Made by a program: the position numbers and the translations under genes | Shown here: one piece after another, positions 1 to 11,946 of the stretch | Numbering within the stretch: position 1 is the first letter of the stretch | Layout of the letters: the number at the start of each line of letters is the position of its first letter | Virus record (IMG/VR): IMGVR_UViG_3300045988_024551 | Coordinates: 1 to 11,946 of that record | DNA from: a virus | Length of the DNA: 11,946 nucleotides | Direction: 5' to 3' (one strand) | Notes under the pieces: model-generated | The model's database searches: none | Seen by the model: the letters and a program-made list of their open reading frames with translations, nothing else | What the model was told of the DNA's origin: nothing

Positions 1-102
1 AAAGGTACACTAGACACGCAGATTTAACATTTCCCAACTATCTTTTAACACTTGCTAACACACTTTGGCACGCTTTTTGCTGTGTCGCTTGTACCGTCAT
101 TG

Positions 103-129
103 TTAACACACTTTAACACATTTAACACA
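103..129. repeat. Three direct TTAACACA repeats at 10- and 9-bp spacing inside the ITR (mirrored at 11818..11844)
   Basis: TTAACACA occurs at 103-110, 113-120 and 122-129. Further TTAACA/CTAACAC copies lie at 24-29, 45-51 and 55-61. Spacing is about one helical turn. Confidence 0.6.
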
Positions 130-160
130 CCGTTAATACTGTTAAACTTTCATAAAAATA

Positions 161-204
161 ATGTTTCACGTGGAACGGTGGATAACAAATGTTTCACGTG
201 GAAC
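161..204. promoter_or_regulatory. Two copies of a 16-bp site ATGTTTCACGTGGAAC (imperfect palindrome around CACGTG), 28 bp apart, inside ITR-L
   Basis: Exact copies at 161-176 and 189-204. The core GTTTCACGTGGAAC differs from its own reverse complement at 2 of 14 positions, as expected for a dimeric DNA-binding protein site. Function (origin accessory or operator) is inferred. Confidence 0.45.
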
Positions 205-269
205 AAAGGGCGAATAGCAGCAAAGTGTCTTATTTGTTAAAGTGATTTAAATTAAAACTTTTACACTTT

Positions 270-320
270 TTAACGAAAATAATTTGGTGGTTTTGCAAAA
301 ATGTTGTATCTTTGCGCCGT
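270..320. repeat. 51-bp promoter module, inverted copy of 11612..11662 (3 mismatches), lying inside the perfect ITR after a non-homologous spacer
   Basis: Left: TTAACGAAAATAATTTGGTGGTTTTGCAAAAATGTTGTATCTTTGCGCCGT. Reverse complement of the right copy: TTAACGAAAATAATTTGGTGGTTTCGCAAAAACGTTGTATCTTTGCACCGT. Confidence 0.85.
283..314 (+). promoter_or_regulatory. Left-end promoter, Bacteroidota type (-33 TTTG, 20-nt spacer, -7 TATCTTTG)
   Basis: TTTG at 283-286 and TATCTTTG at 307-314. It matches the TTTG / TAnnTTTG consensus of Bacteroidota primary-sigma promoters, about 45 nt upstream of the first + strand ORF. Confidence 0.6.
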
Positions 321-357
321 GATTAAGAAACAAAGTTGAACATTTAAATATAAGAAT

Positions 358-684
358 ATGGCAAAGTACAAAATTACTTTAGAGTTTGAATCTGTTGTGT
401 CTATAAACGGTACACGTGTAAAGAGTGAAACATCACGTAACACGCAAATTGTTGAGGGTGTTTTTTCTGACGTTGCAAAAGTTATGTATCAACATGAAAT
501 CAACTGTATTAAGCATAACACCTTACCAAAGTTAACTAAAGACGTTTATACTATCTTTGATTCAAAAGATAATTTGAACTACATTAATGAGTACGGTTGT
601 TGTGTTACACAACTTTGTAACAAGTTGGGAAAAGATGTAAGTTCTTTCTTGCAGTTGATACAAACAAGCGAGAGAATTAAATAA
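358..684 (+). CDS. Hypothetical protein, 108 aa (first gene of the left operon)
   Basis: ATG ORF just downstream of the left promoter, followed by a hairpin. No motif recognised. Confidence 0.65.
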   Translation: MAKYKITLEFESVVSINGTRVKSETSRNTQIVEGVFSDVAKVMYQHEINCIKHNTLPKLTKDVYTIFDSKDNLNYINEYGCCVTQLCNKLGKDVSSFLQLIQTSERIK

Positions 685-693
685 AGTTTAACC

Positions 694-719
694 GCCTGTA
701 ATGTTCACTACTTACAGGC
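694..719 (+). terminator. Possible attenuator hairpin between ORF1 and ORF2
   Basis: GCCTGTAA (694-701) pairs with TTACAGGC (712-719), 10-nt loop. Only a weak T-tract follows, so any termination is probably partial. Confidence 0.3.
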
Positions 720-735
720 TTAAAGTAATTGATAT

Positions 736-939
736 ATGGAATATTCATATTTTAGAATCACATTGAAACAAACCGACAAAGTTACGGTTTTTATGGTACG
801 TTCTGATAAAGTAAGTGAGTTCTTTAATAACAAGATTGATTATTTACAGGGCGATTGCTCAATAACAGTTAAAGGGCGTTTTTCAACGCACAAAGATTCT
901 CGCAAATGGTTTATTGTTACACCAACAGAAAATAAATGA
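736..939 (+). CDS. Hypothetical protein, 67 aa
   Basis: ORF whose stop overlaps the next start in an ATGA junction at 936-939, suggesting translational coupling. Confidence 0.55.
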   Translation: MEYSYFRITLKQTDKVTVFMVRSDKVSEFFNNKIDYLQGDCSITVKGRFSTHKDSRKWFIVTPTENK

Positions 940-1370
940 GTGATATGAAAAAGATTAAGTATTTTAAATTGTCTGAGTTCATCAACTCAGCAACGGCGCA
1001 ACGTCTAAAAATAGACAATATGCCATCGTTTGAAATTGTGGATAACTTGAATCGTTTAGCCGATTATTTAGACGGTATTCGCGAAAAGTTAGGTAAACCG
1101 ATTCTAGTTTCTAGTGGCTACCGATGTCCGTTGTTAAATAAGGCGGTCGGGGGTGTTGTTAACAGTCAACACCAAAAAGGTTTAGCGGCTGATTTGGTTT
1201 GTGCTGATATGACAAAACTTGAATCGGTTCTCAGAGAAACAGGCGGTTTTGACCAACTTATTAAAGAACACCGCAAAGGTTTTCCGAATTCGTTTTGGTT
1301 TCACGTTTCAGTTTGCCCACGTAATGGTAAACCACGCAACCAAATTATAATTAATTTGGAAAAGAAATAG
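936..1370 (+). CDS. Peptidase M15 family (zinc D,D-/L,D-peptidase type) endolysin, 144 aa
   Basis: SGYRCPLLNKAVGGVVNSQHQKGLAADL followed by FWFHVSV gives the H-x6-D...H zinc-ligand pattern of Peptidase_M15-type phage endolysins. No signal peptide or TM segment is evident. Confidence 0.85.
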   Translation: MSDMKKIKYFKLSEFINSATAQRLKIDNMPSFEIVDNLNRLADYLDGIREKLGKPILVSSGYRCPLLNKAVGGVVNSQHQKGLAADLVCADMTKLESVLRETGGFDQLIKEHRKGFPNSFWFHVSVCPRNGKPRNQIIINLEKK

Positions 1371-1372
1371 TT

Positions 1373-1621
1373 ATGGATAAGGTTATAGAAATTTTGTTGA
1401 AATCGGTTGAGGGTTCAACCGAAACTTTGCAGTATATAGCAGGAAACACAACAGGTACAAACGGTATGCTATTAAATTCTGTTATTGATACATTGAAAGC
1501 GCAAACATTAGTAATAAAAACTATTTCGTGCAAACTTGATGAAGAAACGGCAAAGAAAAACCGTGCTTTGGATTTTATTTGTAGCAAAAATTTATATTGC
1601 GAATTTGCTAATAAAAAATAA
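1373..1621 (+). CDS. Hypothetical protein, 82 aa
   Basis: ORF starting 2 nt after the endolysin stop and ending directly at the bidirectional terminator. No TM helix or lipobox seen, so it is not an obvious holin or spanin. Confidence 0.55.
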   Translation: MDKVIEILLKSVEGSTETLQYIAGNTTGTNGMLLNSVIDTLKAQTLVIKTISCKLDEETAKKNRALDFICSKNLYCEFANKK

Positions 1622-1655
1622 GAAAACAGGCGGTAACATTTTACCGCCTGTTTTC
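1622..1655. terminator. Bidirectional intrinsic terminator where the + and - transcription units converge
   Basis: Perfect 15-bp stem GAAAACAGGCGGTAA / TTACCGCCTGTTTTC with a 4-nt loop (CATT). The stem ends supply a run of T's on both strands. Confidence 0.85.
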
Positions 1656-1657
1656 TT

Positions 1658-3220
1658 TTATAGATAAACGCCTGTTTCAAGTTGTGAAACAATTTCGTTA
1701 TATTCATCTACCAACAAATTTGCAGTGTCCAAATTTACGTTTTCAAACTGTGCAAACCCTGTAACGTCTTTCAACGTTACATCTTTTTGCGTGTTGTTAA
1801 TTACAACGTCAACGGTTTTATTTTCCGTTATTAAAAAGTAAGGTTCTAAACCATACAAAATTTGTTCGTTCCATTCGTCACCGCCAACGAGATTTAAATC
1901 GTTATCCCCTGTTCGATAAATAACATCACGTGACAAAGAAAAACTTTCAAACTGAAATGTTACACCGTCACACGATAGGAACGCCACAGCATCACCCGTA
2001 ACGATGTTAACTTTCAAAGACAAATTAACCGTTTTACCAATATATGAGTTATCAACAGGAACAAACCCACGGCACGGGATAAAAATTGAAATCTTTGCAT
2101 CATAATCGGCATTGTTACCGTTTAACCCTGTAAGGGCAACGTTTCCGAAATCTATTGTTATAATATCGGTTTTTGGCGATTCTACAACGATTTTTGTATC
2201 GTAGTCACCACATTTCAAGTTATCCGTACCACTTACAGGAACGTTTGCGAAAATTTGCTTAATACGGTTCACATATACGCCCAAATTAACGGTTTGTGTT
2301 GCACCTGTTGTTTCATCAACCACTTTAGAAAAACGTTGCTTGCTGAAAGCATCTAGATTTTCCAAACTTACTTTATAAACATTAATTGCACCGTAATTTT
2401 TTGCAACGGGTTCAATTATATTGGCATCGGCATTCAAAGTAAAGTTGAAATTTGGCGTAAATGTTAGCGTTCCCGTTTTCTTTTCGCTATCTAGCGTAAA
2501 GTTTACCGTTTTTGGGATTCCGTGCTCTAGATAGTAAACGTTTGGCGTGATTCCGTCAAATATAGCGTTTTCGTTTGCCGTTACCGTCACCGTAATCTCT
2601 TTGCCTTTTTCTACAGTTTCACCCGTCAAACTTGAAACGCAATTTTTCAAATTATATGTGACGTTTACAAACGTTTTAATTTCGTAGGCGTTGGCATTAA
2701 TTGTAAAATTGTCGTTTGGGGTAATTGTCACCGATGCCGTTAATTTGTCGATAGCTACATTAAAAACCGTTGACGGTGTGCCCGATGTTTCGTAGTCAAT
2801 AGCTGGTGCAACACCCGAAAAAGAAAACCCCTTGTTTGCGGTCAAAGTAATCGTTATCTCTTCCCCTTTGTTTACCGTGCCATCGTTTAACGAACTAGTA
2901 CAATTTGACAACGTATTTGTAACCGTGACGGTTTCGGGTACCGGGTCTGCACTTTCAACCGTAAACGCTTTAACGGTGCACGTTGATGCATTTGATGGAA
3001 TCTCATAAGAAATTGTTGCTTTTTTCCCTGTTGAATCCAAAACAAAGTTTGTATTGATATACTGAAAACTTGATGTTCTGATAGCTACCAACGGTACAGG
3101 GTCAAACTTATATCCCGTGTTTGCCTGTAGGGTCAAATTTAAAGTTTCCCCGTGTTCTATTGTTTCGGGCTTGTCACCGATAACGGTTGTCTCTGTTGAA
3201 ATATTATAAGTTATTTTCAT
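1658..3220 (-). CDS. Tail protein, 520 aa: three tandem ~85-aa beta-rich repeat domains (aa ~2-269) plus a C-terminal ~250-aa domain reminiscent of the C-terminal part of the phi29 gp9 tail knob
   Basis: Internal repeats are visible in the translation, with cores LNLTLQANTGYKFD / ITITLTANKGFSFSG / ITVTVTANENAIFDG. This is a VTLTA-x-A-x-x-GY-x-F pattern like divergent InlB B-repeat or Ig-like surface domains. It is the last gene of the late operon. The C-terminal ...FAQFENVNLD...VDEYNEIVSQLETGVYL resembles the gp9 C-terminus by eye only. Confidence 0.6.
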   Translation of the reverse strand: MKITYNISTETTVIGDKPETIEHGETLNLTLQANTGYKFDPVPLVAIRTSSFQYINTNFVLDSTGKKATISYEIPSNASTCTVKAFTVESADPVPETVTVTNTLSNCTSSLNDGTVNKGEEITITLTANKGFSFSGVAPAIDYETSGTPSTVFNVAIDKLTASVTITPNDNFTINANAYEIKTFVNVTYNLKNCVSSLTGETVEKGKEITVTVTANENAIFDGITPNVYYLEHGIPKTVNFTLDSEKKTGTLTFTPNFNFTLNADANIIEPVAKNYGAINVYKVSLENLDAFSKQRFSKVVDETTGATQTVNLGVYVNRIKQIFANVPVSGTDNLKCGDYDTKIVVESPKTDIITIDFGNVALTGLNGNNADYDAKISIFIPCRGFVPVDNSYIGKTVNLSLKVNIVTGDAVAFLSCDGVTFQFESFSLSRDVIYRTGDNDLNLVGGDEWNEQILYGLEPYFLITENKTVDVVINNTQKDVTLKDVTGFAQFENVNLDTANLLVDEYNEIVSQLETGVYL

Positions 3221-3222
3221 AA

Positions 3223-3666
3223 TTAAACATTTCCTTTTATTGTTACCATAATAATGCTACCGTCTTCACTCAATAACTCTTTATTCGGAAAATCAAGTTT
3301 TCTGATATTAGGGCGTGAATCGAAAACGTTTGAACGGTTTGAAAGATACTCGTTAACATTTTCGCCCTTTGTAAGCGTTCCCGTACTATTCAAAATAATA
3401 TCCTTATAAGTTAATAAAACGTCAACACGCAAACGAACTGTGCAAATATCACCGTCTTGTTGCTTTTCTGAAACGAAATAATAACGGTTCAAACTTTCGA
3501 TATAAACGTAATTAAACGTAACAGGCGTGCGAGTTCTGAAACGTACAACAGGCGTTAACACATTAAATGTAGCATTCAACACGCCTGTATATTCTTCGTT
3601 TGTCTGTAGCGTTTTGTTTACTTCGTTTGGTTTGCCGTTGTAAACAAATGTTTTGATTTTAACCAT
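3223..3666 (-). CDS. Small tail/neck protein, 147 aa, from the internal ATG at 3666 (the ORF track extends to 3705)
   Basis: The upstream 13 codons of the tracked ORF lie inside the terminator hairpin 3685-3720, so the ATG at 3664-3666 (MVKIKTFVYNG...) is preferred. NYVYIESLNRYYFVSEKQQDGDICTVRLRVDVLLTY resembles the N-terminal ...YIMFQN...WFYAFVTELE...VHFEIDVLQTW block of the phi29 gp9 tail knob (recalled, not searched). Confidence 0.55.
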   Translation of the reverse strand: MVKIKTFVYNGKPNEVNKTLQTNEEYTGVLNATFNVLTPVVRFRTRTPVTFNYVYIESLNRYYFVSEKQQDGDICTVRLRVDVLLTYKDIILNSTGTLTKGENVNEYLSNRSNVFDSRPNIRKLDFPNKELLSEDGSIIMVTIKGNV

Positions 3667-3671
3667 ACCGC

Positions 3672-3720
3672 TAAAAATTAAAAGGGGGCATTCCTGTGCT
3701 ATCAACTACAGGAACACCCC
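3672..3720 (-). terminator. Intrinsic terminator immediately after the major capsid gene
   Basis: In the minus-strand RNA, GGGGUGUUCCUGU / ACAGGAAUGCCCC forms a 13-bp stem (two G-U pairs) with a 10-nt loop, followed by CUUUUAAUUUUU. Confidence 0.75.
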
Positions 3721-3738
3721 AACAGTTATACAATCAAA

Positions 3739-4923
3739 TTAGGCAACAAAGAACACAACAAAGTTTTCGTTTGTGTCGTTGAAGTAGCCAGCATCGAATT
3801 TGAAGTAATTGTTGAAAAATTCTGCTTTGGCGTTGTAGTTGGTTGTTACTCGCTTATCCAAATTTGTAACACCCAAAGCATCACGGTCAAACATCACACC
3901 CAGCACGCCACCGATGGAAACAGTAGCACCGCTCGCACTCTTAACATCAACTTTTGAAACGTTGTCGAATGCATAATCTTTGCCTGTTGCTTGCCAGCTT
4001 GCAACGGTCTCAGCCTGTGGCAACAACACGTTTTCGTTGTGGAACGTATCGGCATAAAGATATGTTTTTGCAGCGGCTGCAAAATCACTCAACAAGACGG
4101 TGTGCAACACGTCTTTCGGTGTGAAACGCTCTTTGCCGCCAACGTTGAACAAAGTTGAAATGGTTTGCAAACGGTCGGCATACAAACCCATAATATAAGC
4201 GGCAAATCTGATAAAATCCGGTGTTGTTACGGCAACGTTTGCAGCCAACTGTGCTCCCGTCTTCTCGTTGTAAAGATGTAACAAGTTTACGCAACGAACT
4301 GTTGATGCGCTAGAGTAATCTACTGTTTCGTGTGTTGATGCAACAAAACCGAATGCAGATTTGTCTGCGTCCAAAGTTTCAGCAATCATATTGTTAATTG
4401 TACGCATAACTAGTGCATCGGTTTTGATAGTCATTGACTTCTCAACTGCTGAATAAATCATTGACAAAAAGCCGTTCAATTGTTCTGCACTGCTGAAAGA
4501 TTCCTTTACCTGTCTTTCTGTGATAGATACGGGAACCTCAAAAGTTACCTTTGAGTTGAAGAACTTAGCCGAAACTGTCGGTTTGTGGAACACGTCCTGT
4601 TTGTACTCTGTGCCGTCGGTCAAATTCCACGTGTCATTTTCTTCAGCCTGTGGAACGTCAGCGGAAATCTTTTCCAAAACGCTACCAAATTCCCATGCAT
4701 CCATCAAAACGCTTGGAACTTTGCCGCTATACGGGCGGTTTACGAAAACAACTTTGCCGATATGGTTAACCAACGATTTAACGTAATTATCCACGGCATT
4801 TTGGTTAAAAATCTCGTTACCCAAATCAACGATACCCGTTAAATCTTCGTTGACAATATCGGTTTTTCCCAAAACTTCACCCGATACGGTGTTTACTAAA
4901 CTATAAATCTGTTTTACTTCCAT
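3739..4923 (-). CDS. Major capsid protein, phi29 gp8-like (HK97 fold), 394 aa, without the C-terminal Ig-like domain of gp8
   Basis: VDNYVKSLVNHIGKVVF parallels phi29 gp8 QNDFITSLVDRIGLVVI. The C-terminal NNYFKFDAGYF...NFVVFFVA parallels gp8 WNYYYHVW...FANAVAFV. It sits downstream of the portal and is followed by a strong terminator. Confidence 0.8.
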   Translation of the reverse strand: MEVKQIYSLVNTVSGEVLGKTDIVNEDLTGIVDLGNEIFNQNAVDNYVKSLVNHIGKVVFVNRPYSGKVPSVLMDAWEFGSVLEKISADVPQAEENDTWNLTDGTEYKQDVFHKPTVSAKFFNSKVTFEVPVSITERQVKESFSSAEQLNGFLSMIYSAVEKSMTIKTDALVMRTINNMIAETLDADKSAFGFVASTHETVDYSSASTVRCVNLLHLYNEKTGAQLAANVAVTTPDFIRFAAYIMGLYADRLQTISTLFNVGGKERFTPKDVLHTVLLSDFAAAAKTYLYADTFHNENVLLPQAETVASWQATGKDYAFDNVSKVDVKSASGATVSIGGVLGVMFDRDALGVTNLDKRVTTNYNAKAEFFNNYFKFDAGYFNDTNENFVVFFVA

Positions 4924-4942
4924 TTTTATAAAAAATTAAGTA

Positions 4943-5512
4943 TTAATAAATATCTACTGTTAACTCTTTTGCAAGTTCTGTAATAACTTGCGTTTTGAAA
5001 TTAGTTTTGCGTAAACTCATTTCTTTTTGAATAATTTCACTAACAGGAACACTAGACGGCAAACCGTTCTTAATACTTGTTTTCGTGCCCGTTTCTTGTC
5101 GGTTTCCTGTTGATTCTCGTTGTTGCTTGGCATCATTTCCGAAATCTCCATTATTAAACGTTGTACTTGAATCGACTGTATTATTATTTCCTGTTTCGTC
5201 AACGGTATTACTAGTTGTTTCCGTTGTCTTTGACGTTACAGGGTTTAACACGTCATATTCTTTATTAAACACTTGAATTTGTTTTTGCCATTCGTCAAAC
5301 TTCACCGTAATAATACTTTTAACAATATCGTTTGCAGTTTCGTTTGTTACGGCATCAACAAGAATTTTGTTTCCATATTTGAAACGAAAATCAATATCTA
5401 TTATTTTCGGGTCATCTTCCCCGAAAATTGATTTGTACAAAACAGGAAACAGGGGCGCAAAGATTTTTTCAAACAAACCATTTTCACCCGTGAAAAGTTC
5501 GTTAATTTTCAT
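4943..5512 (-). CDS. Head or neck assembly protein, 190 aa (scaffold or lower-collar candidate by position), called from the ATG at 5512
   Basis: The ATG at 5510-5512 overlaps the portal 3' end (GAAAATGAAAATTAA) in the coupled-gene style used elsewhere here. It lies between the portal and the MCP. It has a T/N/S-rich central region and an amphipathic C-terminus. The ORF remains open upstream to 5728 through the repeat (see findings). Confidence 0.55.
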   Translation of the reverse strand: MKINELFTGENGLFEKIFAPLFPVLYKSIFGEDDPKIIDIDFRFKYGNKILVDAVTNETANDIVKSIITVKFDEWQKQIQVFNKEYDVLNPVTSKTTETTSNTVDETGNNNTVDSSTTFNNGDFGNDAKQQRESTGNRQETGTKTSIKNGLPSSVPVSEIIQKEMSLRKTNFKTQVITELAKELTVDIY

Positions 5513-6560
5513 TTTCTTCTTTGTTTTCTTTTGTTTCTTCTGTTTCTTCTGTTTCTGTTTCCGTTTCTTCTGTTTCTTCTGTTTCTGTTTCCGTTTCTTC
5601 TGTTTCTTCTGTTTCTTGCGTTTCGTCCGTTTCGTCCGTTTCGTTTGTAGGGTCAACGTCTTCTGTATCTGTGTGGTCGTGCCCGTCTTCTGATACTTTA
5701 AGCAACGATAAATAGTTTTCGTGCTCAATTTTCCAACTAGACCCCAACGTTACCGTAATATCCGTGCCAAACATTTCGTTAACACGTTTAACACCCTCAA
5801 CACGTTCCGTTAACATTGAATCAACAAACGGCATTAAAGCATCTATATTCATCGAAACTTCTTGCGTGTTCAAACGTTCACGTTTCATGTTATAATTTGC
5901 GTTCAAACCCAAATCGTTAAACATTGACGCTTTGTAATACTGCAAAAGTTCAATCATTTGCGTTATTTGTTGGTTACTTTGTGTTGGTGGTGTTTGCATA
6001 TTTACACCTTTGAAAAACGCATTTTCACCAACCACCGAGAAATCACCGTCCAAAATCTTTTGCAGGAACGATTCTGCACTTTGTCGGGTCTTATCATCAC
6101 TTGCAGAAATAAGCATTGTTATTCTAGTTAAAATACTAGTCATATTCAGCGTTATAACTGCATCGGTGTAAAGTACGCCATATTTCCCGATAATTGGCAA
6201 AATTGAATCTGCAAACGGTGTGTTGTTGATAACTACAATATCATCACCAATTTTGAAAGTTTTATCCAACTTTAACCACGGGTTTGCGACAACGAAATCT
6301 TTGCCCCGATAATACGCATCACATTCACCGCCACGTGAACCCTGTAAGGCGTACAAATCACCGTTAACTTTGGCGATTCCAACGTTACCGCTAGTTTGCA
6401 GAATCTTTTCAAGTTCTACAGGCGGCATTGTTTCGGGTGTTCCTGTATATTCAAACATTTTTGAAGTCATACAAAGAACACGTTGCATAAAAGTATTTAA
6501 TGCGTAATCTTTGTTCTTAACTTCTGTTTGATACAGGGCATATAAATTTTCTTTTTTCAT
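5502..6560 (-). CDS. Portal (connector, upper collar) protein, phi29 gp10-like, 352 aa, with a ~55-aa poly-acidic E/T/D repeat tail
   Basis: [26 protein letters not shown] parallels gp10 [37 protein letters not shown] parallels [35 protein letters not shown] parallels [24 protein letters not shown]. The C-terminus is ...[47 protein letters not shown]. Confidence 0.9.
   Translation of the reverse strand: [352 protein letters not shown]
5533..5646. repeat. In-frame tandem repeat: 30-bp unit GTTTCTTCTGTTTCTTCTGTTTCTGTTTCC x2 exact plus a partial third copy, built from 9-bp GTTTCTTCT-like subunits and decaying into GTTTCGTCC units
   Basis: 5533-5562 is identical to 5563-5592, and 5593-5616 repeats the first 24 nt. 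Degenerate 9-mers continue to 5646. All unit lengths are multiples of 3. Confidence 0.9.
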
Positions 6561-6754
6561 TATTTGATAAGCGTTTTAATTAACGTACAAAGTTCTGTTA
6601 ACACTTTCGTGTTACTTTGTACTGTTTCGTTCAACCTGTCTGTTTCCTGTTGGTGACGTTCATTCTGTTTCTCCATATAAAAGAAAAGGGCGATACAAAC
6701 CGCAACAGGAAAACCAACGTTACTAATTAAAGATACGATTCCGTTTAAATCCAT
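6560..6754 (-). CDS. Small single-pass membrane protein, 64 aa (YvrJ-like; holin candidate), first gene of the late operon
   Basis: Hydrophobic segment IVSLISNVGFPVAVCIALFFYM followed by a charged helix. The ISNVGFP-AV motif recalls the YvrJ family (from memory). Its stop overlaps the portal start (TAATG at 6558-6562). Confidence 0.6.
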   Translation of the reverse strand: MDLNGIVSLISNVGFPVAVCIALFFYMEKQNERHQQETDRLNETVQSNTKVLTELCTLIKTLIK

Positions 6755-6786
6755 ATATTAAATTTTAACTTTGTTATTTTACGTTG

Positions 6787-6818
6787 CAAAGATAGCATTA
6801 TTTTCTGAAAACGCCAAA
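6787..6818 (-). promoter_or_regulatory. Internal (late) promoter, Bacteroidota type, driving the 64-aa gene, portal, MCP and tail genes
   Basis: On the minus strand: TTTG (reverse complement of 6815-6818), 20-nt spacer, TATCTTTG (reverse complement of 6787-6794). This is the same geometry as the two terminal promoters, about 30 nt upstream of the ATG at 6754. Confidence 0.6.
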
Positions 6819-6865
6819 TAAAAACGGGGAAAATGTTTCACGTTAAACACTTTTTATCCCCGTTT
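6811..6865 (-). terminator. Hairpin plus U-tract after the ATPase gene; its 26-nt loop carries a degenerate copy of the ITR site
   Basis: AAACGGGGA (6822-6830) pairs with TCCCCGTTT (6857-6865). The minus-strand RNA is followed by UUUUUAUUU, which overlaps the late -33 element. The loop contains AATGTTTCACGT (6832-6843). Confidence 0.5.
6832..6847. promoter_or_regulatory. Half-conserved copy of the ITR site (AATGTTTCACGTtaaac), about 50-65 nt upstream of the predicted late transcription start
   Basis: The 12-nt string AATGTTTCACGT is identical to the ITR copies at 160-171 and 188-199. A chance 12-mer match in about 12 kb is unlikely. Confidence 0.4.
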
Positions 6866-6873
6866 AACAGATT

Positions 6874-8013
6874 TTAAGAAATAATGTTACTTCTAGCACT
6901 TGCCATCAGGTAATTTCTTACAATTTCCCCGATTTCGTTATTTTGATAAAATACCTTATCTGTTGCGAAATACTTTGTTATCTGTGATTCTAGATAACTT
7001 GCAGTACTCAACAACTTGCGTTTATAGTTCGGTTTGCCGTTCATTCGCAGCGAATAAATTAAACTGTTGTCCGTGTCTTTTATCGGGGTTGTTTTGTTAT
7101 GTATATAAACAAAGTTGTTAACCCCTGTTTCTTCGTCTTCTACTTGAATAACGTTACCCTGTAAGGTCATTTCGTTAAACTGGATATAGAACACAAATAA
7201 CACATCATTCGGGCGATATTTAACGGGTAAATGAGGGTAAACCGCTAGTTCCCATTTACCGCCCGTAATCATCTGCAAATTTTGATTATCGAAACAGAAA
7301 TATTTGTTGCTGGCTTTCTGTTTAACAATCGTGCTGCAATATTCTACTGCAACAGTTGCACCGTGTTCACCGAATTTATAAATATCTATTGTGCCCTGTT
7401 CCATTGAGCGAACTTGTTTCAAACCCATTTCTGAGAAATACGGGCAAAACTGATTTACGGTGTTACCCAACATAAAAACCTTAACATCGTTTCGTTGTCG
7501 GATAATCGTGCTTAACAGGTTCATATATAGCATAAATTCATCGGGCAAATAATAACGTCTTGTCAGGAACTCATCGAAAACGATAGTAGTTATATTCGGG
7601 TAACTGCTAGATTTTTCGTGTTCCTGTTCTGATAAACAGAAACCGAAACAAAACGGTACGTTATCTGGTACACGTTTTTTAGTTTCGGGGTCATAGGACG
7701 AAAGAAACCATTTACCCGAAATATAAAACACTTCATTGAATCTACCGTCTGTCAGTTCCTGTATTACACCGTTTGCAACGTGATTTGAGAATAAACTTTC
7801 GGCACGTTTGCCCCTTAAATCTTCACGCCAACGTCTGATATACGCCATTTGTTTCCCCGTCTTCAAATATTCTTTGATTCCATATAACAACGTGGCGTAT
7901 GTTTTACCGTTGGAACGTTCACCGAATATTACGTTATAATCGGCATTCTTTGCCAAAATTCGTGAAAGACTGTAAAACTTTGGCGTTTCTGCTTTTTCTT
8001 TCTTCTGTTTCAT
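6874..8013 (-). CDS. DNA packaging (encapsidation) ATPase, phi29 gp16-like, 379 aa
   Basis: YSLSRILAKNADYNVIFGERSNGKTYA...AYIRRWREDL parallels gp16 LSYDRILNFVIGARGIGKSYA...IYVRRYKPEL (Walker A). SSSYPNITTIVFDEFLTRR parallels SNAYPNVSTIVFDEFIREK (Walker B). Confidence 0.9.
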   Translation of the reverse strand: MKQKKEKAETPKFYSLSRILAKNADYNVIFGERSNGKTYATLLYGIKEYLKTGKQMAYIRRWREDLRGKRAESLFSNHVANGVIQELTDGRFNEVFYISGKWFLSSYDPETKKRVPDNVPFCFGFCLSEQEHEKSSSYPNITTIVFDEFLTRRYYLPDEFMLYMNLLSTIIRQRNDVKVFMLGNTVNQFCPYFSEMGLKQVRSMEQGTIDIYKFGEHGATVAVEYCSTIVKQKASNKYFCFDNQNLQMITGGKWELAVYPHLPVKYRPNDVLFVFYIQFNEMTLQGNVIQVEDEETGVNNFVYIHNKTTPIKDTDNSLIYSLRMNGKPNYKRKLLSTASYLESQITKYFATDKVFYQNNEIGEIVRNYLMASARSNIIS

Positions 8014-8014
8014 A

Positions 8015-10225
8015 TTATTCTTTTTTTAATCTTATTCCCATTAAATAATTTATATAAAGAACTGAAAGACTCAACGTGTACCCTGTTGGTTCTAAGTGTA
8101 CCCCCGTTAACGTGTCGTAACTTGAAACCGTGCCCGTGTAGTCTTTTATCGTTCCCGCTTGTTCGTAATCAATATACGTGTGTATATTCTTGCCTGTTGC
8201 GCTAGGTGGAATATCCAAATAATTTGTAAATGCGTCAAAGATTCCGTTTTCCCCAAACGTTTCTAACATATAAGGGATAGCAGATTTTTTGTTAACGCCC
8301 GAAACGGTAATACTATAATTGTAATCTTTGCCGTTTACTGTTAGGGCGTTTTCTTCTTCTACCATGTACCTTTTTGCACCTAAAGTCTTAAAACGGATAT
8401 ACCGCCCCTCATAATCCCAAACCCCCAAAGGTTTTGCGATTCCCTTAATCGTGACGGGTTCAACCTTTTCAAAGGGTATTTTATGATGCTTACAGGCTGC
8501 ACGTAATTTTTGTTGTGCTAACATATTGTAGGCAACGAAATATTCTTTGTGAGCATCACCGTTCATTATTTTAACGCTATCGGTATCACTATATATATAA
8601 TCGTCACCACATTCGGCAATACCCGTAAATAAATTACGTCTAGCATAAGCGGTAACGTATATTCCCCACGGATAAAACAAGAAACGATTTTTGCTATCAT
8701 TGTATTTTTGCAGCGTTTCTAATTGCTTTTCCCCTGTAAGGTGTTCAATATCCCACGTTTCGCCATCACACAAAATCTCATCACGCAACGGGTTTGTAAC
8801 ACACATACCGTAACAACTGTTTAGCATTTCTTTGCTATTCAAATACTCTACTTCTTTGCCTTTAACGCCTTTTAGTTTCGTCTTCATTTCGTAAAGGTGT
8901 AAAATAGATTCTACAAACTCGGTCGGCAAATATTCTTTTCTGTAGCATATCATTCGCCCGATTCTGATTTGTTCCCACGTGTAAAACTGTGAAAAAACTT
9001 TGAAATCTATTTCGGTAATCGTCATACAAATCTTTGTTGCACAAACTAAACGCCCGTTATTCTCGGAAACGTTTTCTTTTACGAAACACTTACTAACAGA
9101 TATCGGGTTTTCGTTTTCTGATTTTGCGAATATGTTTGTAATCTCAATATCAAAGACACAACAGTATTTACTCGTCATAAACTCAAATTGTTTCATCGAT
9201 TTAACAGGAACAACAACGCCCGTGCTCATCGGGAATTTTTCGGAAACCATCACATAAGGGTAACTGCTAGTAAAATCGTAACTATCAACGTTTTCTATTA
9301 CCTCATCGGTATATTTTGCGTTGGCGTGCGTAAAACCGCCCGAAAATGCCCTTTGTAACATTAAAAATTCTTCCATTCCTGTAATATTCAAATTGTGTAT
9401 TTTATCCAAATATTTAAAGTTTGGAATCGTTTTACCTGTTTCGGGGTCTGTTGTCTTGAAGCATACAGAACGGCAATATTTGCGTACAAATCCAGTTTTT
9501 GTTATTGGTAGCTTTGTTATTCCTTTGTAACGTTCCAAAAGTTCCTGTATATAGCACATAACAACTTTTATATCGTTCAAACAGTAATCAATTTCTTTTT
9601 GTGTCAACGGGGTTTTACTGTGACGTAATAGGCTATAATCTAAATCACCTACCAACTTTTCACATTTATATTTGTGAAGTTGTTCACCTAATTTCGCCAA
9701 CGAATAACCCGATAGCAAATAAGAGCAACGGAACTCTAAACCGCTTTTTGTTATTCCGTAAATCGGTTTACGCAAATCAATAGAGAAAACTTTTTCCCAT
9801 TTTAGCATTTCCCGTAAAAATTGGAACTCATATGCCAAATTGTGAACATATATAATAATACGCCTTTTTTGGTTCAGATTCAATATTCCCACGATGTTAT
9901 CTAACATTTGCAAAAATTCTTTCCATGTTCTACCAATAATGCAAAAACCATTTATTCCAAATTGCCAAACGTACATTAAACTACATTTTTCCATTTTGGT
10001 ATCTTTGCCACCTAATTTTATGTAACGGTCATAACTATATGTTTCCCCGTCTTCATCACGATAAAATGAAGTAGTTTCAATATCAAATGAAACAGGCACA
10101 TTTAAGAACTTTTCGCCCCTATTGTTTCCCATAAAGTTCTTTTCGTTCACAGCCAACGATAAAACCTTTGCAATATCTTTAGGCGTGTAAATTTCGTTGT
10201 GAAGTTCAAAGGGTATCTTTTTCAT
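8015..10225 (-). CDS. Protein-primed family B DNA polymerase, 736 aa
   Basis: ExoI FDIETT (D48/E50); ExoII HNLAYEFQF (aa 128-136); ExoIII YCLNDIKV (aa 214-221); motif A DSYDFTSSYPY (aa 314-324); motif B KEMLNSCYG (aa 465-473); motif C YSDTDS (aa 545-550); KxY GAKRY (aa 616-620). Confidence 0.95.
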   Translation of the reverse strand: MKKIPFELHNEIYTPKDIAKVLSLAVNEKNFMGNNRGEKFLNVPVSFDIETTSFYRDEDGETYSYDRYIKLGGKDTKMEKCSLMYVWQFGINGFCIIGRTWKEFLQMLDNIVGILNLNQKRRIIIYVHNLAYEFQFLREMLKWEKVFSIDLRKPIYGITKSGLEFRCSYLLSGYSLAKLGEQLHKYKCEKLVGDLDYSLLRHSKTPLTQKEIDYCLNDIKVVMCYIQELLERYKGITKLPITKTGFVRKYCRSVCFKTTDPETGKTIPNFKYLDKIHNLNITGMEEFLMLQRAFSGGFTHANAKYTDEVIENVDSYDFTSSYPYVMVSEKFPMSTGVVVPVKSMKQFEFMTSKYCCVFDIEITNIFAKSENENPISVSKCFVKENVSENNGRLVCATKICMTITEIDFKVFSQFYTWEQIRIGRMICYRKEYLPTEFVESILHLYEMKTKLKGVKGKEVEYLNSKEMLNSCYGMCVTNPLRDEILCDGETWDIEHLTGEKQLETLQKYNDSKNRFLFYPWGIYVTAYARRNLFTGIAECGDDYIYSDTDSVKIMNGDAHKEYFVAYNMLAQQKLRAACKHHKIPFEKVEPVTIKGIAKPLGVWDYEGRYIRFKTLGAKRYMVEEENALTVNGKDYNYSITVSGVNKKSAIPYMLETFGENGIFDAFTNYLDIPPSATGKNIHTYIDYEQAGTIKDYTGTVSSYDTLTGVHLEPTGYTLSLSVLYINYLMGIRLKKE

Positions 10226-10887
10226 TATAAACCGAATTTTTTAAAACTCTTTAGAATCTTTGCTAATGTATCATCAAGTAAACCGCTTATTCGTTCCTGT
10301 TCTTCTTCGATAGCTTTAGCTTGTTCGTTCAAATCGTCTTGCAACGAATCTGCTATTTTTATTGCATCATCTTCGATTTGGTCGGAAACGTCTTTGCTTT
10401 CTTGTTCAAGTTCCCCCGTAAAGTCTTTGTATTGCATTAAATATTGTTCCAAAAACTTTTCATCGGAAACACTCGCAATTTTACCCATCAATTTATTTTG
10501 CATCAAACTAAATTCATCATCGTTTAGTTTGTACGTTCTCTTTAGGTGTTGCGCATATTCTTTCGTACCCGTTGCACTTGATGTAGGTTGTTGCAGAAAC
10601 GCCACCGCTTTAGCATATTCGATTTTTAAATCGTTCCAATCGTGTTTCATTGAAAACTTTGCAAACCCTTTTATATCACCTTTGTTAAGGGCAACAACTG
10701 CTGGCGACACAATACCCGAATTTTCAACATTTTGTATGCGTCGGTTTGCCTGTTGAAAAGTTCGTGCAATTTCTTTTCTTAATACAGGGTCTGATTCCAA
10801 AGCGGTTAAAATCTCGCTTTTTACGTGAATTTTCCCCGTAAACGAAAAAGTTCTTTTACTAAACCCTATTGGATTTCTTTTTGCCAT
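10225..10887 (-). CDS. Candidate terminal (priming) protein, 220 aa
   Basis: Positional: it lies immediately upstream of the polymerase and overlaps it by 1 nt, as gene 3 precedes gene 2 in phi29. Basic N-terminus (MAKRNPIGFSKR...RTFQQANRRIQN) and strongly acidic helical C-terminal third (DVSDQIEDDAIKIADSLQDDLNEQAKAIEEEQE). No direct sequence homology recognised. Confidence 0.5.
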   Translation of the reverse strand: MAKRNPIGFSKRTFSFTGKIHVKSEILTALESDPVLRKEIARTFQQANRRIQNVENSGIVSPAVVALNKGDIKGFAKFSMKHDWNDLKIEYAKAVAFLQQPTSSATGTKEYAQHLKRTYKLNDDEFSLMQNKLMGKIASVSDEKFLEQYLMQYKDFTGELEQESKDVSDQIEDDAIKIADSLQDDLNEQAKAIEEEQERISGLLDDTLAKILKSFKKFGL

Positions 10888-10908
10888 AATTTACTAAATT
10901 TTAAAATG

Positions 10909-10954
10909 AAACAAAAACGGGGGCAACAATAAATAAATTACTGTTTACCCCCGT
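10909..10954 (-). terminator. Intrinsic terminator or attenuator between the 121-aa gene and the TP-polymerase-ATPase genes
   Basis: Minus-strand RNA ACGGGGG...CCCCCGU (10948-10954 pairs with 10917-10923), followed by UUUUUGUUU. Confidence 0.65.
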
Positions 10955-10982
10955 GACGTTATTCAACCCTTTTACCTTACAA

Positions 10983-11348
10983 CTACTTATCTACAAAGGT
11001 AATACCGTAACACTTTTTGGCGTGCGATTCATATTCATAAATCGTGTAACCAACTTTGTTTGCTTTGATAGCATCTACCGCATCACTATTAGCGAGAATC
11101 TCTCTCACTGTGTCACCTGTAAACTGTGGTAAGTTAACAAGACGTTTGTTTTCTGCGTCAATGATAACGGGCGAATCTCCCAACTGTGACTTGTGAACGT
11201 ACATACCATTAATAGGATGCACCACATCACCTCCACCTTCTTTCTCATCGTTGAAAATATCAACCAACTTTACAAACGGGAAATCTGTTGTATCAATCCC
11301 GAAACTAGTTTTATTAAAAGTACTAGCAAAACTAAAACCCTTTGGCAT
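10983..11348 (-). CDS. Hypothetical early protein, 121 aa (candidate ssDNA- or dsDNA-binding replication accessory protein, by position and size)
   Basis: It occupies the position of phi29 genes 5/6 upstream of the TP gene, is similar in size to p5 (124 aa), and is separated from TP/pol by an attenuator, consistent with a high-copy protein. Function is inferred only. Confidence 0.55.
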   Translation of the reverse strand: MPKGFSFASTFNKTSFGIDTTDFPFVKLVDIFNDEKEGGGDVVHPINGMYVHKSQLGDSPVIIDAENKRLVNLPQFTGDTVREILANSDAVDAIKANKVGYTIYEYESHAKKCYGITFVDK

Positions 11349-11399
11349 ACCTTAAAGCCTTTTAAACGTTAAACTTCTGTTGTCTTTGAACACCTGTTA

Positions 11400-11567
11400 C
11401 TACTTGACTTCGTTCACACCGTTTGCAGATGCAAACTCGTTCAACCACTTCTTAAAGCGGTTCAACTTAATAACCGCCTTATCATCTCTAGCCACTTCAT
11501 TTGAAGTCATAAGAGCATTAACACTAGTAATACAGTTGAAAACTGTTTCATTAAAATTCTCATTCAT
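11400..11567 (-). CDS. Hypothetical early protein, 55 aa (below the ORF-track cutoff), first gene of the right operon
   Basis: My manual translation of the minus strand is MNENFNETVFNCITSVNALMTSNEVARDDKAVIKLNRFKKWLNEFASANGVNEVK*. It starts about 45 nt downstream of the right promoter and is co-oriented with the operon, unlike the tracked + strand ORF 11380..11592. Confidence 0.45.
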   Translation of the reverse strand: MNENFNETVFNCITSVNALMTSNEVARDDKAVIKLNRFKKWLNEFASANGVNEVK

Positions 11568-11617
11568 AATTTCACCTAATTTAAATTGTTAAACTTATAT
11601 TGTTTCTTAAACACGGT

Positions 11618-11649
11618 GCAAAGATACAACGTTTTTGCGAAACCACCAA
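11618..11649 (-). promoter_or_regulatory. Right-end (early) promoter, Bacteroidota type, near-identical to the left promoter
   Basis: On the minus strand: TTTG (reverse complement of 11646-11649), 20-nt spacer, TATCTTTG (reverse complement of 11618-11625). Confidence 0.6.
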
Positions 11650-11706
11650 ATTATTTTCGTTAAAAAGTCTTAAAGAAATAAATTAACTGTTGTTAACACT
11701 TACAAC

Positions 11707-11786
11707 GTTCCACGTGAAACACTTTGCTGCTATTCGCCCTTTGTTCCACGTGAAACATTTGTTATCCACCGTTCCACGTGAAACAT
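11707..11786. promoter_or_regulatory. Three copies of the CACGTG-core site at the right end: two are ITR mirror copies and one extra copy straddles the ITR boundary
   Basis: GTTCCACGTGAAACA occurs at 11707-11722 (extra copy, absent on the left), 11743-11758 and 11771-11786. Confidence 0.45.
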
Positions 11787-11946
11787 TATTTTTATGAAAG
11801 TTTAACAGTATTAACGGTGTGTTAAATGTGTTAAAGTGTGTTAACAATGACGGTACAAGCGACACAGCAAAAAGCGTGCCAAAGTGTGTTAGCAAGTGTT
11901 AAAAGATAGTTGGGAAATGTTAAATCTGCGTGTCTAGTGTACCTTT
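11719..11946. repeat. Right inverted terminal repeat (ITR-R), 228 bp
   Basis: Reverse complement of 1..228 with no mismatch. The window ends ...GTGTACCTTT. Confidence 0.95.

Follow-up and report, generated by a model that had tools for sequence, protein, structure and literature searches.

An 11.9-kb linear podophage genome with 228-bp inverted terminal repeats, related to Astrithrvirus, from the human gut

The analyzed stretch of DNA, IMG/VR record IMGVR_UViG_3300045988_024551 (11,946 nt in full; hereafter, the window), carries 15 open reading frames (ORFs), with 90% of the sequence coding and a GC content of 36.5%. Among them are genes for a protein-primed-type family B DNA polymerase (PolB), a gp16-type DNA packaging ATPase, a portal, and a phi29-type major capsid protein (MCP). 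The window is bounded exactly by an inverted terminal repeat (ITR) of 228 bp, whose two copies (1-228 and 11719-11946) are 100% complementary. A first-pass annotation had described this DNA as a whole linear replicon of the phi29 type with about 15 genes and a perfect repeat at both ends; this description is confirmed, as the ITRs, the AAA ends, PolB, the ATPase, the portal, and MCP are all present. Taken as a whole, the data are best explained, with a probability of about 0.8, by a lytic podophage from the Astrithrvirus-like branch of the phi29 supergroup, represented here by its complete linear double-stranded DNA genome.

Genome ends and completeness

The window is a complete linear genome with real, fixed physical ends in the 228-bp ITR. 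It corresponds to one entire JGI/ENA contig, and this accounts for the position of the repeat exactly at its borders. The same end sequence, 5'-AAAGGTACAC, is found on both sides, the terminal bases being 5'-AAAGGTAC. Among related IMG/VR contigs, at least eight have an Illumina adapter (..GCTCTTCCGATCT; ...GTGCTCTTCCGATCT) joined directly to AAAGGTACAC; thus, the adapters were ligated to a DNA end located at that base. Seventeen contig ends of relatives terminate at exactly AAAGG (AAAGGTACAC). These adapter junctions and contig ends mark the left ITR, the presumed replication origin, and the right ITR is marked by a junction in the contig L121 considered below. Inward of the perfect repeat there is an imperfect extension (235-333 vs. 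11600-11698, 85% identity) that carries the promoters of both genome ends.

Another explanation of such a structure is an ITR created by the assembly or an incomplete contig, resulting from a misassembled circular or longer genome or from an internal repeat. Assemblers can indeed make terminal inverted duplications, and a search for contigs reaching past the ends, as proposed in the first-pass annotation, yielded two longer ones, of 20,354 and 14,413 nt. However, in both of them the foreign DNA begins at the phage terminus, within one base: the phage part stops after ...GTGTACCTTT at one joint and starts with AAGGTACAC at the other, the latter having only two of the three A's. The opposite phage end is truncated within the ITR in both cases. 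In L121, the change to Bacteroides DNA occurs exactly after ...GTGTACCTTT; the flank belongs to Bacteroides uniformis, with an exact match to its ParC, and the adjoining DUF3316 gene is cut short (224 of 338 residues). Because the switch falls at the terminus and the other end is truncated in the ITR, the longer contigs are chimeras formed at a physical end, and the ITR is not internal. The same end base also recurs in dozens of independent assemblies, the adapter is fused directly to AAAGGTAC, and the sizes of relatives cluster at 11.3-12.7 kb (nearly all of 80 IMG/VR contigs with polymerases 89-98% identical). Finally, cultured relatives have ITRs of 83-219 bp (PMC8472413 among the sources). 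The artefact or fragment explanation is thus largely refuted, and we regard it as extremely improbable. Separately, these MEGAHIT chimeras (L121:12085-18081 and L126:1-2037), in which a phage terminus adjoins unrelated DNA, could pass for prophage integration.

The ITRs contain a 9-nt tandem repeat, TTAACACAC (103-130 and 11817-11844), and the heptamer TTAACAC is enriched at both genome ends, with four copies per ITR. These repeats may form an array of binding sites for an origin-binding or another DNA-binding protein. No tRNA gene was found in the window. Neither a pRNA nor another structured RNA was matched by Rfam at E<=1, except for spurious hits on the terminator hairpin (1620-1657); pRNA has been described only for the Bacillus relatives of phi29 and does not define the wider supergroup. 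A structured RNA in the ITR was also considered and rejected: the fold beats shuffled sequences on one strand only (z -4.1), and this is explained by pairing between the copies of a CACGTG palindrome (see below).

Core genes, cultured relatives, and classification

The features of the phi29 supergroup, namely PolB with intact motifs, an ITR with reiterated ends, and proteins of the gp16, gp10, and MCP families, are all found in the window. PolB (736 amino acids [aa]; 8015-10225, minus strand) is recognized by DNA_pol_B_2 (PF03175, E 4e-16) and by the PHROG DNA polymerase family (phrog_1907, E 2.5e-73), and it matches the phi29 polymerase in PDB (1xhx, E 5e-7). Its translation shows the exonuclease and polymerase motifs DIE, YxxxD, SSYP, KxxxNSxYG, YSDTDS, and KRY. 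The ATPase (379 aa; 6874-8013, minus strand) matches Podovirus_Gp16 (PF05894, E 4e-23; PHROG, E 4e-33) and contains a Walker A motif that reads GERSNGKT. The portal, or upper collar protein (352 aa; 5502-6560, minus strand), belongs to the gp10 Phage_connector family (PF05352, E 9e-13; PHROG upper collar, E 1e-37), and MCP (394 aa; 3739-4923, minus strand) belongs to Phi29_MCP (PF25622, E 2e-55). The C-terminal tail of the portal is acidic (ETEETE) and is encoded by a 9/30-nt tandem repeat at 5513-5642 (minus strand); the length of the portal varies from 352 to 382 aa across near-identical genomes.

No nucleotide match was obtained when the complete window was compared by megablast with 50,697 phage records of GenBank. 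At the protein level, the nearest cultured phages have genomes of 10.4-11.9 kb. They include astrithr, Astrid, and assan from Salmonella (genus Astrithrvirus, 11.6-11.7 kb), Acinetobacter phage Aci01-2-Phanie (hereafter, Phanie; 11.9 kb), Pectobacterium phage DU_PP_III (11.5 kb), Enterobacter phage Entb_47, Vibrio phage K58 g2 (10.4 kb), and a Shigella phage. The earlier view of such tiny genomes as rare oddities is not supported, given several cultured phages of this size with related proteins; they have been discussed as the smallest tailed phages (PMC8472413, PMC11476376, bioRxiv 10.1101/2025.06.18.659913).

As annotated, the genomes of astrithr, Astrid, and Phanie have a gene order identical to that of the window: a small ORF, a protein of about 200 aa, PolB, the ATPase, a membrane protein of 62-70 aa, the connector, a protein of about 185 aa, MCP, a protein of about 146 aa, and a large protein, after which an arm of small genes in the opposite orientation closes the map. 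Nine of the 15 window proteins were found by tblastn at the corresponding positions of Astrid and Phanie. The identities are 58% for MCP, 51-53% for the ATPase, 45-46% for PolB, 37% for the portal, 28% (E 1e-6) for a 220-aa protein, 25-36% for a 64-aa protein, 25% (E 4e-7) for a 147-aa protein, 19-24% (E 5e-4 to 2e-3) for a 190-aa protein, and 24% over the C-terminal part (E 6e-6) for a 520-aa protein. The low-identity homologues (the 147-, 190-, 520-, and 64-aa proteins) span 18-36% identity, with E-values from 2e-9 to 0.05.

Astrithrvirus thus resembles the window in gene order, in a linear genome with ITRs and about 15 genes, in nine homologous proteins, and in the sizes of the ordered products (a 62-64-aa membrane protein and proteins of about 185-190, 146, and 520-570 aa). 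The differences are as follows: the ITR is 83-84 bp in Astrithrvirus vs. 228 bp in the window; its endolysin is a CHAP amidase that ends the long operon, whereas that of the window is an M15 peptidase on the opposed arm; the window has an additional early gene for a 121-aa protein and promoters of the Bacteroidota type that are absent from Astrid; and the host of Astrithrvirus is Salmonella, whereas the setting of the window is the human gut. DU_PP_III is similar in overall parameters (11.5 kb, 37.4% GC, 219-bp ITRs, and 16 ORFs; PMC8472413) and in MCP (56% identity) and PolB (44%), on which the likeness rests, but has an enterobacterial host. Phanie is syntenic with the window (MCP 58%, ATPase 53%, PolB 45%), has a 171-bp ITR, and shares a split tail knob that includes a protein with immunoglobulin (Ig)-like domains. 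In Phanie, this protein has 854 aa and six such domains and is annotated as a lyase, whereas its counterpart in the window has 520 aa and three domains.

The more distant phi29 (Salasmaviridae) shares with the window the PolB, gp16 ATPase, gp10 connector, and gp8 MCP families, an organization into early and late operons with a bidirectional terminator, and a nearly identical end (AAAGTA vs. AAAGGTA in the window). It differs in genome size (19.3 kb), ITR length (6 bp), and its Gram-positive host. In the Rfam, Pfam, and PHROG scans, the pRNA, the scaffold gp7, the head fibres, and the appendages gp12 and gp13 of phi29 were not found as such in the window, nor were its one-piece 599-aa knob and 293-aa lower collar in the Pfam and PHROG scans. 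Another phi29-like genome of similar size is Bacteriophage sp. isolate 2692_55609 from human faeces (12.1 kb; PMC11476376), whose knob is split and for which a Bacteroidales host was suggested. By its description it is set apart from the window: with a GC content of 42.5%, it was assigned to cluster c30 of Evseev et al. (2024), nearer to Amedibacillus phages. In our phage collection, MCP of the window is 58% identical to that of Astrithrvirus vs. at most 33% to those of the faecal "Bacteriophage sp." records.

The neighbour-joining tree of MCP places the window in a tight clade with IMG/VR contigs. This clade is nested in a broad radiation of gut-metagenome genomes of 11-13.5 kb, which also includes Astrid and Phanie and is far from phi29. 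The genome size (within 10-14 kb), the gene order from the terminal-protein-like gene to the split knob, and the homologous core agree with the Astrithrvirus-like family-level group, which corresponds to cluster c23 of Evseev 2024 (PMC11476376). Rozwalak et al. described a family-like unit that joins astrithr, 36 IMG/VR viruses, and three ancient gut phages (PMC10805732). Genome-wide nucleotide similarity to Astrithrvirus does not approach the level of about 70% that delimits this genus, and the best protein identity is 58%. The window therefore probably represents a new genus within a known family-level group; it is real and complete, and it is not a new kind of virus. The suggestion of a new lineage in the first-pass annotation thus stands at about the genus level, given no nucleotide match and 25-58% amino acid identity to Astrithrvirus, and fails above it, as MCP falls inside the clade with Astrid and Phanie. 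Likewise, no identity above 70% to a classified genus was found, which leaves the novelty intact but confines it to a genus with an already known architecture.

These phages are very common. The clusters of MCP and PolB at 90% identity have 4373 and 4681 members, respectively. A GenBank copy is annotated as "MAG: Bacteriophage sp." (UVX96231.1, on an 11,994-nt contig), and near-identical genomes are also present in IMG/VR and ENA. At least 80 IMG/VR contigs are near full length, nearly all of them from the IMG dataset that Rozwalak et al. listed as human large intestine.

Terminal protein, split tail knob, and helper dependence

The gene immediately upstream of PolB (220 aa; 10225-10887, minus strand) has a stop codon that overlaps the PolB start codon and, by its position, encodes a putative terminal protein. 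The family of this protein comprises 179 representative clusters, and tblastn links it to Astrid ORF002 (28% identity, E 1e-6), a weak match to the corresponding gene of Astrid and Phanie. Against this assignment, which follows from position, profiles of 24 and 89 sequences revealed no similarity to phi29 p3 (including by hhalign), Pfam, or PDB. The more specific proposal of homology to phi29 p3 was rejected, as the profiles and hhalign gave only generic matches of amphipathic helices. Protein priming is suggested by three features taken together, namely the type of polymerase, the AAA-ended ITRs, and the place of the 220-aa gene next to PolB. PolB would prime on the 220-aa protein at the 3'-TTT ends by sliding back, and strand-displacement replication would run from both ITRs. 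Two early genes lie beyond the putative terminal protein gene. The first encodes a possibly DNA-binding protein conserved in relatives (121 aa; 10983-11348, minus strand), which has no match in Pfam or PDB or to phi29 p5 and p6; its candidate roles as a single-stranded DNA-binding protein or a p6 equivalent gained no support from PDB, Pfam, and hhalign. The second is a 55-aa ORF (11400-11567, minus strand), examined by Pfam and PHROG scans and by comparison of relatives.

Besides the portal and MCP, the virion operon encodes four proteins. A holin-like single-pass membrane protein (64 aa; 6560-6754, minus strand; PHROG holin, E 4e-8) is homologous to Astrid ORF005 and Phanie gp5. The 190-aa protein (4943-5515, minus strand) is syntenic with Astrid ORF007, to which it has weak homology (E 2e-3), and the best PDB match of its family profile is phi29 gp11, though at only E 0.22; a single-sequence model by AlphaFold2 (AF2) was uninformative (pLDDT, the predicted confidence score, of 44). 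On the synteny and the weak gp11 match, this protein is probably a shortened lower collar; alternatively, it could be a scaffold.

The tail knob is encoded by two adjacent genes. The product of the first (147 aa; 3223-3666, minus strand) is a proximal knob protein, a counterpart of the N-terminal part of phi29 gp9. Its family profile matches the N-terminal regions of knob proteins from Streptococcus phage C1 (4eo2, E 1.2e-4) and phi29 (gp9, 5fb4, E 7.5e-3), hhalign aligns it to gp9 residues 91-138 (E 1.9e-4), and it matches Astrid ORF009. The product of the second (520 aa; 1658-3220, minus strand) is a distal knob and probable receptor-binding protein, which consists of three N-terminal Ig-like domains and a conserved C-terminal domain. 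By tblastn, it is homologous to Astrid ORF010 in the C-terminal part of the latter (E 6e-6), and among the predicted viral structures of BFVD its fold matches over the whole length the 568-aa Astrid protein A0A3G8F2C2 (E 3e-15). A Pfam match to Flg_new_2 was also found, whereas the contig index has no entry for the exact 520-aa sequence. The AF2 model has three confident beta-sandwich domains (residues 1-268), followed by 250 C-terminal residues of low confidence; because of the latter, the fold search in PDB returned only antibody-like Ig matches. The C-terminal domain matches the C-terminal part of gp9 weakly (E 0.13), and a resemblance between these parts has been reported for the group (PMC11476376).

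The tail has a split knob, composed of the 147-aa protein and the 520-aa protein with three Ig-like domains, in place of genes of canonical size. The same was described by Evseev et al., who found that the knob of this group is divided into a protein with the N-terminal part and a protein with the C-terminal part and extra Ig-like domains (PMC11476376, section 2.6), that the lower collar is shortened, and that no fibre or appendage genes are detectable (PMC11476376). The first-pass annotation had noted that knob and lower-collar genes of canonical size are missing; this is correct as to the sizes, but the functions are present as split and shortened genes. Its further proposal of an unprecedented minimal virion module is not supported, as the same architecture was already known in Astrid, DU_PP_III, and Phanie, and the knowledge of minimal tailed virions is left unchanged.

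The distal knob protein also diverges between close relatives. Its counterparts in genomes with near-identical replication and capsid genes (L029, L030, L038, L039, L049, and L074 among them) have 445-894 aa and are 29-50% identical to that of the window. By this variation in length amid near-identical cores, the protein behaves as a specificity determinant. Judging from the compared sequences, the variation is modular swapping of the Ig-like N-terminal part, which would act as a host-range (or helper-range) cassette and would set host or receptor specificity.

The words "helper-range" point to another possible lifestyle. According to the accounts of Pourcel 2024 in PMC11476376 and PMC13587820, Phanie is a satellite whose virions are infectious only after binding the tail of a helper myophage, a dependence demonstrated by experiment. 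This weighs against the autonomy of the phage described here, which is suggested by gene content. The same genome could belong to a phage that docks onto the tail of an unrelated helper via the Ig-like domains of the 520-aa protein; the gut phage would then be a Bacteroidales-infecting counterpart of Phanie, replicating and packaging its own DNA and infectious only when docked on the tail of a co-resident helper. Indeed, the layout of the tail genes, a split knob with lateral Ig-like domains, is that of Phanie (PMC11476376, sections 2.6 and 3), and a tail fibre or appendage gene was not detected in the window. This abundant gut clade has no cultured member, and several cultured relatives (Aci01-2-Phanie, K58 g2, and, in PMC13097653, MT83_9) were found as the second genome in a lysate or cocktail. 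On the other hand, the window has its own genes for replication, packaging, and lysis and for a complete short tail. Astrid, by description, is not a satellite (bioRxiv 10.1101/2025.06.18.659913), and the 520-aa protein of the window shares only 15-24% identity with Phanie gp10 and has three Ig-like domains vs. six. We therefore consider both helper dependence in general and the specific scenario of a Bacteroidales-infecting Phanie counterpart to be unlikely, and prefer an autonomous phage. As a separate observation, the names of relatives (Vibrio phage "K58 g2", "S.Ent 1-35-3" in several pieces, Aci01-2-Phanie, and MT83_9) suggest an extra genome in a lysate or cocktail, which is compatible with frequent co-isolation with other phages.

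Transcription signals and the host

A motif scan revealed three predicted promoters of the Bacteroidota type: one for the left-arm operon (TTTG-N20-TATCTTTG; 283-314, plus strand), one for the virion, or late, operon (6787-6818, minus strand), and one for the replication, or early, operon (11619-11650, minus strand). The motif TTTG-N18-21-TAnnTTTG (-33/-7), the consensus of Bacteroidota housekeeping promoters, occurs in the window exactly three times vs. 0.8 expected. The three large intergenic regions hold one site each, oriented toward the downstream operon. In 75 close relatives, the motif occurs on average 3.6 times per genome, mostly as TATCTTTG; it was not found in Astrid, astrithr, and Phanie and is absent in most distant relatives.

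The promoters are accompanied by a palindromic motif, TTCCACGTGAAAC, a putative operator. Two copies lie near the left end (163-176 and 191-204) and three near the right end (11707-11720, 11743-11756, and 11771-11784), and a degenerate copy (6835-6848) precedes the -33 element of the late promoter by 17 nt. In total, the palindrome TT[CT]CACGTG[AG]AA has six sites (12 strand-matches) in the window vs. 0.56 expected. In 74 close relatives, all 331 sites are confined to the outermost 5% of the genome or to its 35-50% interval, near the three promoters; none was found in Astrid or Phanie. With copies near all three promoters, the CACGTG palindrome would be the operator of a phage regulator, possibly a p4-like switch between early and late transcription.

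These signals suggest three transcription units that would depend on the host sigma factor. The right-end promoter would drive the genes for the 55-aa and 121-aa early proteins, the putative terminal protein, PolB, and the ATPase. The ATPase gene directly follows PolB (6874-10225), a layout common to Astrid and Phanie, and lies upstream of the predicted late promoter, so that it would be co-transcribed with the replication genes. The mid-genome promoter would drive the holin-like protein, the portal, the 190-aa collar protein, MCP, and the two knob proteins. Transcription from the left-end promoter would cover the genes for two small proteins, the endolysin of the M15 type, and a protein of 82 aa. 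The first of the small proteins (108 aa; 358-684, plus strand) has no match in Pfam or PHROG and is variable among close relatives; the other (67 aa; 736-939, plus strand) and the 82-aa protein (1373-1621, plus strand) are ORFs that were also scanned against both collections. Between the latter two, the endolysin (144 aa; 936-1370, plus strand) belongs to Peptidase_M15_3 (Pfam, E 3.7e-19; PHROG endolysin, E 5e-35). Converging transcripts would stop at a single hairpin with a 17-bp stem (1620-1657) that lies between the convergent operons and is a predicted bidirectional terminator.

The host is likely to be a Bacteroidales bacterium of the human gut. Three lines of evidence indicate this assignment: the three promoters of the Bacteroidota type, the absence of Shine-Dalgarno sequences upstream of the window genes, and an endolysin similar to those of Bacteroides phages. 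When cultured matches of the endolysin are ranked by coverage and identity, Bacteroides fragilis siphophages come first (44-47% identity). The Bacteroides uniformis DNA in one of the end chimeras also counts in favour of this host. Several points weigh against it. As the promoters of the two genome ends are copies of one another, only two of the three sites count as independent. The margin of the endolysin ranking is small (47% vs. 43%), phages of Proteobacteria being 42-45% identical, and 36 further records at 60-80% identity lie outside the matches listed. The two closest binned copies (MCP 92-93% identical) are in metagenome-assembled genomes (MAGs) of Gastranaerophilales/Melainabacteria, and other relatives are binned with Prevotella, Phocaeicola, and Bacteroidales but also with many Clostridia.

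These bins could reflect a host from another gut lineage, Gastranaerophilales/Melainabacteria or a family of Clostridia; the promoter-like motifs would then be phage-specific signals. The Melainabacteria bins of the two closest copies have a similar GC content, and it is more distant relatives that are binned with Clostridia families. However, the bins are inconsistent across the clade, as expected for 12-kb contigs of high copy number. The -33/-7 motif is right in spacing, position, and orientation and is absent from the proteobacterial relatives, the genes lack Shine-Dalgarno sequences, and Bacteroides phages top the endolysin ranking. In addition, more than 4000 near-identical copies suit an abundant host better than a rare one. 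A host outside Bacteroidales is thus rather doubtful, and a Bacteroidales host is preferred.

Two other approaches to the host were abandoned: a search for endolysin homologues in a large protein database recovered the same phage in all 120 matches listed, and the assignments of MAG bins contradict one another. Whole phage genomes of this clade, of about 12 kb (L084, L085, and L086-L118), have been deposited in MAGs of many unrelated bacteria (Melainabacteria, Gastranaerophilales, Prevotella, families of Clostridia, Elusimicrobia, and Omnitrophota among them), which looks like systematic mis-binning.

In summary, the window gives a very common uncultured phage of the human gut, from the smallest class of tailed phages, a clean reference genome with verified ends. 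The termini, the promoter map, and the variable knob are what is required for designing isolation experiments, for avoiding mis-binning of these contigs in bacterial MAGs, and for not labelling their reads as Pectobacterium or Salmonella phage. Helper dependence, if true, could explain the lack of cultured isolates, and the number of Ig-like domains on the knob would then track helper or receptor specificity. On sequence evidence, the Astrithrvirus-like group is extended from phages of Proteobacteria to a phage with a probable Bacteroidales host.

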